Assembly: GCA_029259155.1 (NCBI GenBank)
Contig: JAPDJI010000003.1
Span: 1-21,869, forward strand
DNA: 21,869 bases
Reading direction: 5' to 3'
DNA from: Candidatus Methanomethylicia archaeon
GTDB lineage: Archaea; Thermoproteota; Methanomethylicia; Nezhaarchaeales; B40-G2
The notes beneath the pieces are model-generated. The model saw only the letters and a program-made list of their open reading frames with translations, had not been told where the DNA came from and made no database searches. Position numbers and translations under genes: made by a program. Below, one piece after another: positions 13,228 to 18,099 of this stretch. Numbering within the stretch: position 1 is the first letter of the stretch; every line of letters begins with the position of its first letter.

Positions 13228-15384
13228 CTACGCGCTACGCATCTGCCTTAAAACCCTGGGGAGGATGACCATTACTAGGGACGGCGTTAAGGTCATAGAT
13301 GCTAAGACGATGCACACCGATGAAAGTTCAAGTATTATAACTACGTCGAGTAACAGTCCTAATAAGTGAAGGAGAAGCGATGATACAAGCCAGGCAAACG
13401 CTACTCTAGCTATTTTACCTGCATCGATCGCCTTGAACCTGCGACCTAAAACGCTTCTCAGCAAGACTGCCAAGGGGCTAATGTAGGCTAGAGATATCAG
13501 CATACCAGCAGTAATGCCAGCAGCTACCACAGCCGCTTCAACGTTCCAACGAGCGAAGACATCGAAGACCCTCTCAGAGACCAGGAGAGAGCTTAACAGT
13601 GGATATAAGCTGCACCTGACAACTTGCCTTAGGTATTCATAACGGTACTCAGCTTCAGCTACGTAAGGGCTCCAAGAATAATACCAAGAGTTGAAAACTA
13701 CCATAAACGCAGCGCCGCCTTTCGTCGACGTGACCTTATAGTCCCTAAAGTCTCTCAAGAACTGGACAGGGCCCTCAAGCTCAGAGCCGAAGGCAGCCGT
13801 AGCGATTAAACAGCCGGGTGTAGTAGGCTGAGGCTCCGTGGGTGTCTCGACAGTGAAGGAAACAACTTCGCTAACTGAGGCTTCATGCTCAAGGTCTCCT
13901 CCAAACACTGCCTTAACGCTCCAGCTACCTTCAATCTCAGGGTTGAAGCTATAGGTAAAGGAACCATCGTCATCGCTTACCACCTCAACCGTCGTCGTGG
14001 AGCCGTCAGGACGGGTAAACACCAGCTCCAAGCACGCGTTCATGGCTGGAGCTATGCTACCGTAAACCGTTATCGCTGAGCCCAGCTCCACCTCACCGGA
14101 CGAGACCGATAAGGTTAGTGAAGTAGCTTCCTTAGTAAACTCAGCCACCGTGAACTGAGTAAAGTGAGATACGCTGGCGTATACATAATTAGCGTCTAGG
14201 TTCACATAGCTCTCCACTGGACACCATTTTTCCATCTCCTCATTATAGTACACTATGCATAGCTTAGCTTCATCCACCCCTAGCTCAAACACCAGCTCGT
14301 CGGTATAGGTGAAGTTTAAGGTTACCGGGTTGTCAAATGAAGCTTCAGGGCCTAGGTCAAATACCTGTAGGAAGAACTTTATGTGAAGGTCAGGGGGTGA
14401 GGGTGTCTCAACCACCTTCACGACCAGCTGCTCTTCTCCCAGCGAGAGGCCTTGTGGCAGCTCTAGGCATAGCTTGAGGTCGCCCATCGCTGTTTGGTTC
14501 ACCACGGTTAGCTTTATGGACCTTGAAAGCCTTCCACCCTCGACAGCCTCAGATAGATCGAAGACTATGGGTAAGCTTTCCGGCAAACGCTCACTCACCA
14601 TTACAGCTACCTCCTCCAAATCAGGCACGAAGCTTAGCAAGGTGGGGGCAGTGATGCTGGTTAAGCCCATCCTCAAGGACGAAGAGACGTTAACTCTACA
14701 CTCAACCCTTGTAGGTTCAGGGACCTCGAGGTCAATAGGGGCGTTAACGTGTAGGACGAAGTCACCTGTGATGGGGCCACAATACCTCTTAACCTCCGCC
14801 TGTACGACCCCTAACCTATACTCCGCCTCGGTCAGCACGGATCCCATGAAAACCTTGACTGGTTTGTCGGCGTTAACGACCTTAGCTCGGTACTCAACGA
14901 AGTCATCCACCGACACTACTATCACGGTCACCTCTTCATTGCTCAGCGGCATATAGATGGGTAGATGAGGGTAGTGGGGTACTTCGACTAGGCCCATAGT
15001 AGCGTTGCTAATGAAGCCCTCGACCTCGACCCTAAGGTCGCTCGGCAACAGAGTGGATAGAGTCTCGCTGAGCTTAGCCTTCACAACCTCCGCTCCATCA
15101 GGAGCCTCGACCAGTTCAACTCCAGGAGGTAATAGTTCGTAGACCACCACCTGCTTGATATCTCCAGACACGCCTTGCCACATCGGTGGCTGCCAAGCCT
15201 CTAACGTTAGCTTAACTGTGAAGACTTCTCCTTCCTCGACCGCGTGATCAGGCAGTTCCCTATACACTGCAGGCTTAAACACTGTGCCTCCCATGCTTCC
15301 TGAAGACGTCGGCGCCGCTATAGCGGAGGAAGCGACGGTCATGAGTATCAGGAGAAGCAGAGTCAAGAAACTTAACCTTTTCAA
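13228..15384 (-). CDS. Secreted/surface protein with Ig-like domains and CFI-box-CTERM domain
   Basis: Signal peptide MKRLSFLTLLLL, beta-rich acidic domains, a PT-rich linker, GCLIATAAFGS...VQFLRDFRD...WYYSWSP (CFI-box) and C-terminal TM helices. SD AGGTGA. Confidence 0.88.
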   Translation of the reverse strand: MKRLSFLTLLLLILMTVASSAIAAPTSSGSMGGTVFKPAVYRELPDHAVEEGEVFTVKLTLEAWQPPMWQGVSGDIKQVVVYELLPPGVELVEAPDGAEVVKAKLSETLSTLLPSDLRVEVEGFISNATMGLVEVPHYPHLPIYMPLSNEEVTVIVVSVDDFVEYRAKVVNADKPVKVFMGSVLTEAEYRLGVVQAEVKRYCGPITGDFVLHVNAPIDLEVPEPTRVECRVNVSSSLRMGLTSITAPTLLSFVPDLEEVAVMVSERLPESLPIVFDLSEAVEGGRLSRSIKLTVVNQTAMGDLKLCLELPQGLSLGEEQLVVKVVETPSPPDLHIKFFLQVFDLGPEASFDNPVTLNFTYTDELVFELGVDEAKLCIVYYNEEMEKWCPVESYVNLDANYVYASVSHFTQFTVAEFTKEATSLTLSVSSGEVELGSAITVYGSIAPAMNACLELVFTRPDGSTTTVEVVSDDDGSFTYSFNPEIEGSWSVKAVFGGDLEHEASVSEVVSFTVETPTEPQPTTPGCLIATAAFGSELEGPVQFLRDFRDYKVTSTKGGAAFMVVFNSWYYSWSPYVAEAEYRYEYLRQVVRCSLYPLLSSLLVSERVFDVFARWNVEAAVVAAGITAGMLISLAYISPLAVLLRSVLGRRFKAIDAGKIARVAFAWLVSSLLLHLLGLLLDVVIILELSSVCIVLASMTLTPSLVMVILPRVLRQMRSA

Positions 15385-15430
15385 TAGTGATCACCTTAAG
15401 CGTATAAGTTATGGGGCCCTGCTTTAATGT

Positions 15431-15452
15431 TTTTGTAACTTTAAGTAGTAAC
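15431..15452 (-). promoter_or_regulatory. Putative operator, copy 2 (GTTACTACTTAAAGTTACAAAA on minus strand)
   Basis: 20/22 identical to 11542-11563, in the same orientation relative to its gene, and followed at the same spacing by TATA-like ATTAAAG. Confidence 0.7.
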
Positions 15453-15606
15453 AAAATGTACCCTAGTCTAGGATTTCTGCCCTAAGGCTAAAAACCGGGG
15501 AGCCGCTAGGCTCTATGACACGTACATGGTAAGCGCGGCGTAGCCCGCGTGAACGCTGAAGGTTAACCATAAAGGTTTATAGGGCAAAAACACAACAATC
15601 CTCCTC

Positions 15607-15717
15607 GGCCCCTTTGGGCTCGGCGGGCAGAGCTCCGCCGTTACTCCGGATGCGGCTCAGCCAAGATGAAGGCTTGGCCAAGGGAGAAATCAACCTCTCC
15701 CATCGGAGGGGTGGGAG
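15607..15717 (+). ncRNA. Structured 5' leader of yhhQ-queC; candidate riboswitch / cis-regulatory RNA
   Basis: TATA box TTTATA at 15576-15581 predicts a start near 15605-15608. Five adjacent hairpins follow, plus an alternative hairpin that covers the SD region. Confidence 0.55.
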
Positions 15718-16368
15718 GTGGCTGAAGGAGAGGTACGTGTAGTATTAACGTCGCTATTCGTATCTTCGCTAGTGGTAGCTAACATAGCAGCCTCCAAGCT
15801 GGTACAGTTCTGGCAGCTCATATTTCCAGCTGGGACGCTGGCTTACTGCATAACGTTCCTATGCACCGATCTTTACGCAGAGTTCTTCGGCAGGAGAGAG
15901 ACCGAGGTAGTGGTGTTATCTGGTTTCGCCGCCAGCATACTGATGGTAGTGTTACTGCGCCTATCCATAGCAGCCCCCATAGCCCCCTTCCAGTCCAGCT
16001 ATCAAGAGGTGTATGCTAGCGTATTGGGCTCGACGGAGCGTATCGTGCTGGCTAGCATGGCGGCTTACCTCGTGGCACAGAGCCATGACGTGTGGGCTTT
16101 CCATTTCTGGGGTAGGCTTACGAAGGGTAAGCATCTATGGCTTCGCAACAACGCCTCCACCATGGTTAGCCAGCTACTCGACACCGTGGTGTTCACCTTG
16201 ATCGCGTTTTGGGGCTATACGCCGCTCCAAGCACTTCTAAACATGGTAATTGCGCTATACCTCGTTAAATGGTTCATAGCGCTTTGCGACACCCCCTTCT
16301 GCTACATAGGTGTATACGCCGTGCGTAGGGCTGTAGGCCTTAAACCCATCTGGATGAAGGAGGTCTAA
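15718..16368 (+). CDS. yhhQ: Queuosine/archaeosine precursor (preQ0/preQ1) transporter, YhhQ/VUT family
   Basis: Motifs ANIAASK, TFLCTDLYAEFFG, RIVLASMAAYLVAQSHDV, WLRNNASTMVSQLLDT and DTPF. Confidence 0.93.
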   Translation: MAEGEVRVVLTSLFVSSLVVANIAASKLVQFWQLIFPAGTLAYCITFLCTDLYAEFFGRRETEVVVLSGFAASILMVVLLRLSIAAPIAPFQSSYQEVYASVLGSTERIVLASMAAYLVAQSHDVWAFHFWGRLTKGKHLWLRNNASTMVSQLLDTVVFTLIAFWGYTPLQALLNMVIALYLVKWFIALCDTPFCYIGVYAVRRAVGLKPIWMKEV

Positions 16369-16369
16369 G

Positions 16370-17122
16370 ATGAGTGGCCTTAAAGCTGTGTCAATTATTA
16401 GCGGTGGGCTCGATAGCATAGGCTACGCCATGCAATGGAAAGTAAGGGGCTACGAGATTTACCCCTTGATATTTAACTATGGACAGAAAGCATCCAAAGA
16501 AGTCGAGGTTGCCCTACGGCTCTCAACTAGGCTAGGGTTTAAGGAACCAGTGGTACTAGACCTCAGCTCATTAAGAAAACTCTGGCCTAACACTCAGCTC
16601 ACCGACGAAAAAGTAGGCGTAGAGACCGAGTATATGCCTACCGTCGTGGTCCCCATAAGAAACGTGGTCTTCCTATCCCTAGCTTGCGCGTACTCGCTAT
16701 CGATAGGCGCCAGCGTGGTTACCTATGGAGCCCACCTAAACGACATAACCCCTAGACAGGACACCGGGGAACCTCTATACCCAGACTGTCACCCTGAAAC
16801 TGCCAGAGCCTTCGAGGAAGTAGTAGCCTTAGCCCACTTCCCCGTCGGCGAGAGGAAAGTCGAGATCTGGAGCCCAGCCAGAGAGGGATTAAGCAAAGCT
16901 GAAAACCTGAAAAGAAGCTACCAGTTGATGGGCGAGTTGATCTACGAGACCTGGAGCTGTTACCTAAGCAACGCTAAGCATTGCGGTCGATGTGAATCAT
17001 GCTTAAACAGGCATAAAGCCTTCATCGAAGCCGGCATCCCAGACCACACAGAGTATGAACACCACCCCCTAGTCCGGGAGGAATGCTTCAAGGGGCTGTG
17101 CGGGGTAAGCTTCAAGCGCTGA
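16370..17122 (+). CDS. queC: 7-cyano-7-deazaguanine (preQ0) synthase
   Basis: PP-loop SGGLDS, FNYGQK, VPIRN, YPDC and Zn site TWSCY...HCGRCESC. Confidence 0.93.
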   Translation: MSGLKAVSIISGGLDSIGYAMQWKVRGYEIYPLIFNYGQKASKEVEVALRLSTRLGFKEPVVLDLSSLRKLWPNTQLTDEKVGVETEYMPTVVVPIRNVVFLSLACAYSLSIGASVVTYGAHLNDITPRQDTGEPLYPDCHPETARAFEEVVALAHFPVGERKVEIWSPAREGLSKAENLKRSYQLMGELIYETWSCYLSNAKHCGRCESCLNRHKAFIEAGIPDHTEYEHHPLVREECFKGLCGVSFKR

Positions 17123-17209: not shown

Positions 17210-17283
17210 GGGGCCGTAGGCTAGCTTGGTTAGACTGCGAGGCTTGGGCCCTCGTGACCCAGGTTCAAATCCTGGCGGCCCCA
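17210..17283 (+). tRNA. tRNA-Pro(UGG)
   Basis: Acceptor stem GGGGCCG/CGGCCCC, anticodon arm CGAGG-CTTGGGC-CCTCG, T-loop GTTCAAATC. No intron; CCA not encoded. Confidence 0.97.
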
Positions 17284-18026: not shown

Positions 18027-18099
18027 GCCGGGGTGGCCGAGTGGTCGAGGCGGCGGCCTGCAGAGCCGCTTCACGGGGGTTCAAATCCCTCCCCCGGCT
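18027..18099 (+). tRNA. tRNA-Cys(GCA)
   Basis: Acceptor stem GCCGGGG/CCCCGGC with U discriminator, anticodon arm GCGGC-CTGCAGA-GCCGC, T-loop GTTCAAATC. Confidence 0.97.

Follow-up and report, generated by a model that had tools for sequence, protein, structure and literature searches.

To our knowledge, the riboswitch classes of archaea are few and all of them are common to bacteria; those responding to fluoride (crcB) and to thiamine pyrophosphate (TPP), for example, occur in archaea and were first defined in bacteria. Bacterial genes for the transporters YhhQ and QueT are described as being under the control of riboswitches for 7-aminomethyl-7-deazaguanine (preQ1) (PMC5372724, PMC11625349). 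A 2024 review of this family distinguishes three classes, none of which is archaeal, and the word 'archaea' appears nowhere in its text (PMC11625349). The related compound 7-cyano-7-deazaguanine (preQ0) is made from guanosine triphosphate via FolE, QueD, QueE and QueC and is the precursor of archaeosine, whereas preQ1 is no intermediate of the archaeosine pathway as outlined in the same source (PMC5372724). Here we analyzed a 21,869-nt stretch of DNA from a Candidatus Methanomethylicia archaeon of the order Nezhaarchaeales (contig JAPDJI010000003.1 of assembly GCA_029259155.1), referred to as the window, in which a structured leader at about 15605-15720 precedes yhhQ and queC. As far as comparative analysis goes, this leader is established as a conserved, covarying cis-regulatory RNA tied to 7-deazaguanine import. 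Beyond this, it probably belongs to a class of cis-regulatory RNA that is restricted to archaea and has not been described before, and its most likely role is that of a riboswitch that turns translation OFF on sensing preQ0 or a very close 7-deazaguanine.

Conservation was assessed at orthologous loci, using four close orthologues (67-81% amino-acid identity) that a YhhQ protein search of 40 related genomes returned. Between the window and these four loci, the ~100 nt before the start codon (15621-15720) are 82-87% identical, compared with 67-72% for the yhhQ coding DNA and 47-54% for the 100 nt further upstream, and the substitutions within the leader show no codon periodicity. Because its identity exceeds that of coding DNA without such periodicity, the comparison indicates that the leader is a non-coding element under selection and not a chance fold. 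The leader is single-copy in its own genome and hence no repeat, a possibility that the original prediction had named as a check.

Homologues were collected with three covariance models (R1, R2 and R3). Among the 62 genomes of the window's class, R1 detected the element in 10, where three copies were divergent (G002, G017 and G041). R2 detected it in 3 of 151 genomes of a phylum sample, one being the window's own and another, G101, belonging to a different class. Applied to 151 genomes of that class (Bathyarchaeia sample), R3 gave hits in five, three of them strong, and two of the three strong carriers have two copies each; a weak, divergent copy in G196 (30.9 bits) again has a QueT gene downstream. 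A single degenerate pattern, built only from unpaired conserved bases, was moreover run on two collections. Of its 17 loci in the species-genome collection, the 12 archaeal loci were confirmed by R2 at 82-123 bits and the five bacterial loci were not; in the JGI metagenome collection, R2 confirmed 40 out of 41 loci. The five bacterial loci (L032, L033, L034, L041 and L042) and the metagenome locus L050, all without a model match, were discarded as chance pattern hits. Altogether, 55 model-confirmed instances comprising 41 distinct sequences were obtained (alignment A5). By their record labels, the archaeal hits belong to Nezhaarchaeales, Methanomethylicia, Hecatellales and other Bathyarchaeia; none was found outside Thermoproteota archaea, the search in the remaining archaeal phyla consisting of the exact pattern on the genome collection, without the models.

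The first gene downstream encodes YhhQ in 18 and QueT in 35 of the 55 instances, the two undeterminable ones having less than 160 nt of downstream DNA. All 53 determinable instances lie on the strand of the transporter gene, and in 50 of them the matching frame follows within about 25 nt of the model end; in the YhhQ rows L076, L031 and L035, the matching frame lies 228-459 nt downstream and the genes are fragmented or differently started. QueT, Vut_1 and QueC were confirmed by Pfam in representative loci. Association of the same RNA with a single pathway across two non-homologous transporters, YhhQ and QueT, makes the 7-deazaguanine link firmer than the original prediction had claimed. A QueC-like frame is present downstream in 24 of the 55 instances. 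Three queT-type loci of the window's order (L018, L083 and L058) carry an ATP-binding cassette (ABC) ATPase gene after queT, an arrangement that resembles an energy-coupling factor (ECF)-type importer for 7-deazaguanine. The next gene in L054 and L083 encodes a 192-aa protein, which matched a predicted membrane-protein family weakly and below threshold in L054 and no family in L083; judged by position only, it would be the ECF T component. Even within one genus, near-identical leaders stand before yhhQ-queC (G005, G006 and G008) or before queT with an ABC ATPase gene (G010 and G013).

Two leader copies per genome were seen in one Hecatellales metagenome-assembled genome (MAG; L026/L031) and one Bathyarchaeia MAG (L035/L040), the same loci as those of G233 and G213 (L090/L091/L095/L096). 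At least one copy in each precedes yhhQ and then a longer QueC-like gene (319 aa, Pfam QueC 3.9e-32), while the other copy also precedes yhhQ and queC was not found where the contig was long enough. With two copies each, these genomes hold a small regulon rather than a single locus. At L076 (830-940), an intact leader is followed by yhhQ and queC frames in pieces on a metagenome contig, reflecting either decay or an assembly error.

In the family alignment, the leader consists of a sensor-like part, made up of hairpin P1, the 4-bp helix P2 and hairpin P3, from which a conserved linker leads to hairpin P4. In the window, the parts are located as follows:

15607-15620, + strand: P0, an optional 5'-terminal hairpin GGCCC/GGGCU (15607-15611 with 15616-15620) abutting P1, read from the sequence
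15621-15640, + strand: P1, hairpin CGGCGG/CCGCCG (15621-15626 with 15635-15640) with the conserved loop GnnGAGCU, supported by covariation
15641-15643, + strand: conserved linker UYA from P1 to P2, from alignment A5, at positions set by the search pattern
15644-15647, + strand: 5' strand of P2, CUCC (segment a), partner of 15683-15686
15648-15653, + strand: 5'-side bulge RRAUGY between P2 and P3, GGAUGC in the window, identified by conservation
15654-15679, + strand: P3, hairpin GGCU-AGCC/GGCU-GGCC with the apical loop RAUGA (AAGAUGAA in the window), supported by covariation
15683-15686, + strand: 3' strand of P2, GGAG (segment b), lying within GGGAGA 15682-15687, so that TCTCCC is a possible alternative partner
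15687-15695, + strand: conserved, single-stranded linker AAAUCAACC, joining the sensor-like part to P4
15697-15717, + strand: P4, hairpin CUCCCAUC/GGUGGGAG over the ribosome-binding site, with the loop GGAGG at 15705-15709, supported by covariation

Relatives thus contain the conserved structure with compensatory changes that the original prediction had proposed to look for. In A5, 95.0% of cells form standard pairs, compared with 82.9% in shuffles (0 of 500 as high), at a covariation score of 0.374 versus 0.149. Fifteen of 27 pairs changed on both sides, while the shuffle mean was 9.8 (0 of 500 as high). When the 3' partners were moved by 1-3 columns as a slide control, pairing fell to 41-55%, and the covariation score did not exceed 0.10. 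The 141-nt leader itself has a folding energy of -66.4 kcal/mol (z = -2.77), which just one of 200 shuffles equaled.

Every stretch named in the original prediction was recovered in its place, including TTTATA at 15576-15581, GTG at 15718 and the pair CTCCCATC (15697-15704) and GGTGGGAG (15710-15717), and comparison with the family separated its stems into those that are kept and those that are not. P1, which it had listed, is kept in the 41 distinct homologues with 99.2% of cells paired; the helix is nearly invariant and its closing pair covaries (CG in 33, AU in 3, GC in 2 and UG in 2). P2 had been absent from the proposed structure and was found by the family alignment. Its column pair 34:80 is U-A in 28 sequences, C-G in 13 and unpaired in none, and G041 has its own version, CCCUC:GAGGG. 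For P3 (98.8% of cells paired, both sides changed in six out of eight pairs), a hairpin is kept at the position of the predicted stem GCCAAG 15660-15665/CTTGGC 15673-15678, but the register differs: in the window, the family register pairs GGCU 15654-15657 with GGCC 15676-15679 and AGCC 15659-15662 with GGCU 15671-15674, as does the window's own minimum-energy fold. P4, the predicted hairpin over the Shine-Dalgarno region, has 91.6% of cells paired and both sides changed in six out of seven pairs. P1, P2, P3 and P4 are all supported by this covariation. The stem proposed at 15607-15611/15616-15620 (P0) recurs as a hairpin of varying sequence, but only in about half of the relatives, with 20 of 36 distinct stretches at this site folding at -4 kcal/mol or below (mean z -1.2).

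Other pairings did not withstand the comparison. The proposed pseudoknot between GAGCT and GGCTC fails at three of its five pairs in at least 32 of the 41 sequences, and in place of the stem CCG 15646-15648/CGG 15653-15655 relatives read CCA, CUA and the like. The helix between CUCCG 15644-15648 and CGGAG 15705-15709 (a:d), which belongs to the minimum-energy fold of the window and was used in R1, pairs in only 22.4% of cells. We likewise rejected a UU:AA extension of P2, as 20 of the 41 sequences leave column pair 31:83 unpaired and the U/C in the middle of the UYA linker has no consistent partner, and a pairing of the P1 loop GGnnGA with UCAACC, in which, by eye, the two variable loop bases fail to track the invariant AA. 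Columns 43:76 correspond to window position 15653, where the RRAUGY bulge ends, and position 15682, immediately before the 3' strand of P2. They covary perfectly, reading C:G in 26 and U:A in 15 sequences; this is either an extra pair making two bulges of the internal loop or a clade effect, and the same pattern is seen in further clade-linked columns such as 12:76.

Several unpaired segments are conserved as well. The linker between the sensor-like part and P4 was unchanged in the first nine of ten model-derived hits, prior to any use of the pattern, and a consistent pairing partner for it, sought in the alignment, was not found. GAGCU is also found in the model-only hits, except G041 and G196, and AUGYG in the model-only hits G002, G017 and G041. 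Divergent leaders upstream of queT in G196 (L093 1501-1616) and G041 (L022 1499-1618) have a P1 loop without GAGCU and carry AAAUCCGCG or AAACCCCGC in place of the usual linker; this joint divergence hints at a contact between both segments, or at a subtype. A 25-bit partial match in G245 (L094 1501-1591) comprises a P1-like hairpin and an AAUCAAC-like linker without P3, lies just past a radical-SAM gene with no transporter downstream and is a remnant or a chance hit.

P4 overlaps the ribosome-binding site in every leader type. In the window, its loop GGAGG lies 8 nt before GTG, its 3' arm occupies the spacer and the helix touches the start codon (GTG at 15718, aligned to TTG in the orthologues). 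In queT-type leaders, the 3' arm GGGAGGU is the Shine-Dalgarno sequence itself, followed by 7 nt and then AUG. The 3' end of the 16S ribosomal RNA in the host genome, ...GGAUCACCUCCUA, is complementary to the ribosome-binding site within P4.

The leader forms the downstream end of a 333-nt intergenic region upstream of yhhQ, with the promoter and genes arranged as follows:

15570-15581, + strand: promoter with a purine-rich stretch AAAGG resembling a B recognition element, then the TATA box TTTATA (15576-15581), read from the sequence, 45 nt 5' of P1
15718-16368, + strand: yhhQ (COG1738/Vut_1), 7-deazaguanine precursor transporter, Pfam PF02592 at 2.5e-50
16370-17122, + strand: queC, 7-cyano-7-deazaguanine synthase, Pfam PF06508 at 7.4e-45

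YhhQ also matches the NCBIfam model TIGR00697 'queuosine precursor transporter' with 187 bits (cut-off 51), and QueC reaches 131.5 bits against TIGR00364, under the equivalog cut-off of 150.3. queC begins 1 nt past the end of yhhQ and is presumably co-transcribed with it. Of 39 distinct upstream regions of homologues, 31 have a TATA-like hexamer that starts 25-50 nt 5' of P1, its frequency peaking sharply in the -50 and -40 bins relative to P1, which would place the element inside the 5' untranslated region (UTR). If transcription starts ~25 nt past the TATA box, as is usual in archaea, the predicted 5' end of the transcript would lie 5-20 nt before P1.

These features can be combined into a model of translational control. 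Binding of the ligand would lock the G-rich strands of P1 and P2 in the sensor and leave the C-rich anti-Shine-Dalgarno strand (15697-15704) with 15710-15717 as its only partner, blocking initiation at GTG 15718. Without ligand, a competing G-rich strand would capture the anti-Shine-Dalgarno strand: GGGAGA 15682-15687 in the window and its close relatives; a few Bathyarchaeia leaders would possibly use the 5' half of P1 instead. Initiation could then proceed, so that the importer and QueC would be made only under preQ0 shortage. When the 3' arm of P4 was forced to be single-stranded, pairing of GGGAGA with TCTCCC (b:c) was predicted for 27 of the 41 distinct sequences, among them that of the window and those of Nezhaarchaeales type. 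The anti-anti-Shine-Dalgarno stem of the original prediction is therefore a plausible alternative fold in part of the family, but not throughout it. The predicted folds of a few Bathyarchaeia-type leaders (L025, L039, L044, L045 and L047) contain a long-range helix in which the 5' half of P1 pairs with UCAACC and the anti-Shine-Dalgarno strand, a possible ON-state fold in those few leaders only.

A number of observations weigh against this model or against the comparative data on which it builds. The b:c pairing is possible in 81.7% of cells, barely more than the 79.3% in shuffles, and is not predicted in Bathyarchaeia-type leaders with the 3' arm of P4 forced open; the data therefore do not amount to a family-wide switching mechanism. 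Furthermore, P4 is present in most minimum-energy folds computed without ligand (37 °C parameters), and its formation under these circumstances would also suit a constitutive or protein-controlled hairpin. Concerning the alignment, A5 was built on the structure of the model, a procedure that favors this structure, and its sequences are related, so that the covariation in P2 may rest on only two to three independent events. The bases GAGCU, UYAC, AUGYG and GAAAUCAACC were set by the harvesting pattern, which makes their invariance circular in the 52 pattern-derived loci; conservation of these bases rests on the model-only hits, among which G041 and G196 differ there. Finally, QueD and the motif occur together in G017, so the motif is not limited to pure salvagers.

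Gene content bears on the identity of the ligand. The enzyme arcTGT, which inserts the preQ0 base, is present in the window's genome. QueD/PTPS was found neither in this genome (94% complete) nor in the other 14 searched genomes of the window's order; 9 of the 62 genomes of the class have it, none of them from that order. For QueE, the matches in the window's genome were weak, of a generic radical-SAM kind and never above 24 bits. A true QueC was not found in the motif-bearing genomes G010, G013 and G041 (best E about 1e-5; completeness 88%, 69% and 91%), all of which carry QueT, with an ABC ATPase gene adjoining it in G010 and G013. Taken together, the missing detections of QueD, QueE and QueC make the motif-bearing organisms look like salvagers, and the whole order of the window may depend on outside 7-deazaguanine precursors. 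The importers may take up 7-carboxy-7-deazaguanine (CDG), the substrate of QueC, in genomes with queC and, on this gene content, must take up preQ0 in genomes without it. By this reasoning, preQ0 is the one compound that all these genomes need, and because this need is common to them, it is the candidate for the ligand.

Control by a protein is the first alternative to be weighed. An RNA-binding repressor, a tRNA-modification enzyme such as arcTGT or a ribosomal-type protein could use the leader as a binding site, stabilize P4 and thereby repress the transporter operon. The data reveal a structured cis element over the ribosome-binding site and not what binds to it, P4 is stable alone in most predicted folds, and the conserved loops GnnGAGCU and RAUGA are possible protein contacts. 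However, the motif is not accompanied by a gene for a candidate regulator, its upstream neighbors vary by locus, and the occurrence of the same core in two archaeal classes and before two unrelated transporters is the usual signature of a metabolite sensor. P3, moreover, lacks a second GA strand and, by eye, forms no kink-turn or kink-loop, which counts against protein binding of that type; a kink-turn/L7Ae reading of P3 was rejected, as GA is present on one strand only and the loop GAUGA leaves 1 nt between the GA steps (A5, by eye). Regulation by a protein is, in our view, unlikely.

A riboswitch for a compound other than preQ0, be it CDG, preQ1, guanine or another purine, or the archaeosine base, seems distinctly improbable to us. 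A sensor of CDG would make little sense in the queT-ABC ATPase loci without recognizable QueC (G010 and G013), which keep the core, even though the QueC-like frames in 24 of 55 instances, with QueD not found, suggest CDG import there. In bacteria, preQ1 is the ligand of the classes described in PMC11625349, whose binding of preQ0 is weaker, but preQ1 lies outside the archaeosine pathway as PMC5372724 presents it. A general purine sensor would be expected before purine genes, of which there is none among the 55 instances. Last, a structured leader without any sensing function, such as an mRNA-stabilizing 5' structure, an RNA thermometer or a constitutive translation damper for a membrane protein, is very improbable: P4 alone would reduce initiation, and in hosts from hot habitats (according to record labels) a hairpin of 7-8 bp could melt with temperature, but P4 would then suffice, leaving unexplained both the conservation of P1-P2-P3 over ~75 nt, with unpaired bases that hardly vary, and the exclusive link to 7-deazaguanine transporters of two unrelated families.

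Returning to preQ0 sensing, we consider the chances evenly balanced that the leader is the first riboswitch class confined to archaea and the fourth structurally unrelated natural aptamer for a 7-deazaguanine, tuned to preQ0 and controlling salvage transporters in Nezhaarchaeales, Methanomethylicia and Bathyarchaeia. If so, archaea would have evolved metabolite-sensing RNAs of their own, RNA would have found a fourth independent solution for recognizing 7-deazaguanines, and a natural, thermostable, preQ0-responsive switch would be at hand for genetic tools in thermophilic archaea. The motif also marks YhhQ and QueT as importers of archaeosine precursors. The Nezhaarchaeales, Methanomethylicia and Bathyarchaeia concerned appear to be without the de novo pathway; if the leader is such a class, CDG and preQ0 would presumably be exchanged among members of hot-spring and vent communities. 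That QueD was not found in the 15 searched genomes of the window's order suggests 7-deazaguanine auxotrophy in uncultured Thermoproteota, a point relevant to their cultivation.

Further genes surround the locus. Divergent from yhhQ, a gene at 13228-15384 (- strand) encodes a 718-aa protein and shares the intergenic region with the yhhQ promoter. The protein carries a signal-like stretch at its N terminus and hydrophobic segments at its C-terminal end, matches an Ig-like family (Big_3_5) weakly and below threshold, and is probably a surface protein. Shortly 3' of queC, two tRNA genes lie on the + strand at 17210-17283 and 18027-18099 (Rfam tRNA, 57 and 60.6 bits).

To place the leader among described RNAs, we compared it with known families. 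In Rfam 15, the window had no match at gathering score, 15350-15800 had no relevant match at E up to 10 and six representative homologous loci gave no match at E up to 1, in keeping with the novelty that had been suspected for the leader. Nor does the leader fit the Rfam models of preQ1-I, preQ1-II and preQ1-III, which we take to be RF00522, RF01054 and RF02680, respectively. Full-text literature searches, supplementary files and subscription journals aside, turned up neither an account of this motif nor any riboswitch for preQ0 or preQ1 in archaea.

The preQ1-II riboswitch, reportedly described by Meyer et al. in 2008 (cited in PMC5372724), is similar in size to the candidate, at about 80-100 nt. 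Like the candidate, for which we infer this mode of action, it resides in the 5' UTR of queT and acts translationally by burying the Shine-Dalgarno sequence upon 7-deazaguanine binding, as described in PMC11625349. The two differ in where the ribosome-binding site is held, namely in the local hairpin P4 in the candidate and in the pseudoknot helix of the sensor in preQ1-II. They differ likewise in host and ligand, preQ1-II being a Firmicutes RNA that binds preQ1 and the candidate an archaeal RNA with preQ0 as the expected ligand, and they match in neither sequence nor structure. The preQ1-I class, including the type upstream of yhhQ, controls yhhQ and queT and binds preQ1, and preQ0 more weakly, according to PMC5372724 and PMC11625349. 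It is a pseudoknot of ~34 nt, whereas the candidate comprises three stems plus a platform hairpin in about 100 nt. With preQ1-III, the candidate has in common a similar length, a position upstream of queT and a separate downstream helix over the ribosome-binding site (as described in PMC11625349), but preQ1-III has other conserved nucleotides, is bacterial only and gave no Rfam match. Compared with the fluoride/crcB and TPP riboswitches, the candidate would likewise be a metabolite- or ion-sensing leader, but one found only in Thermoproteota archaea.

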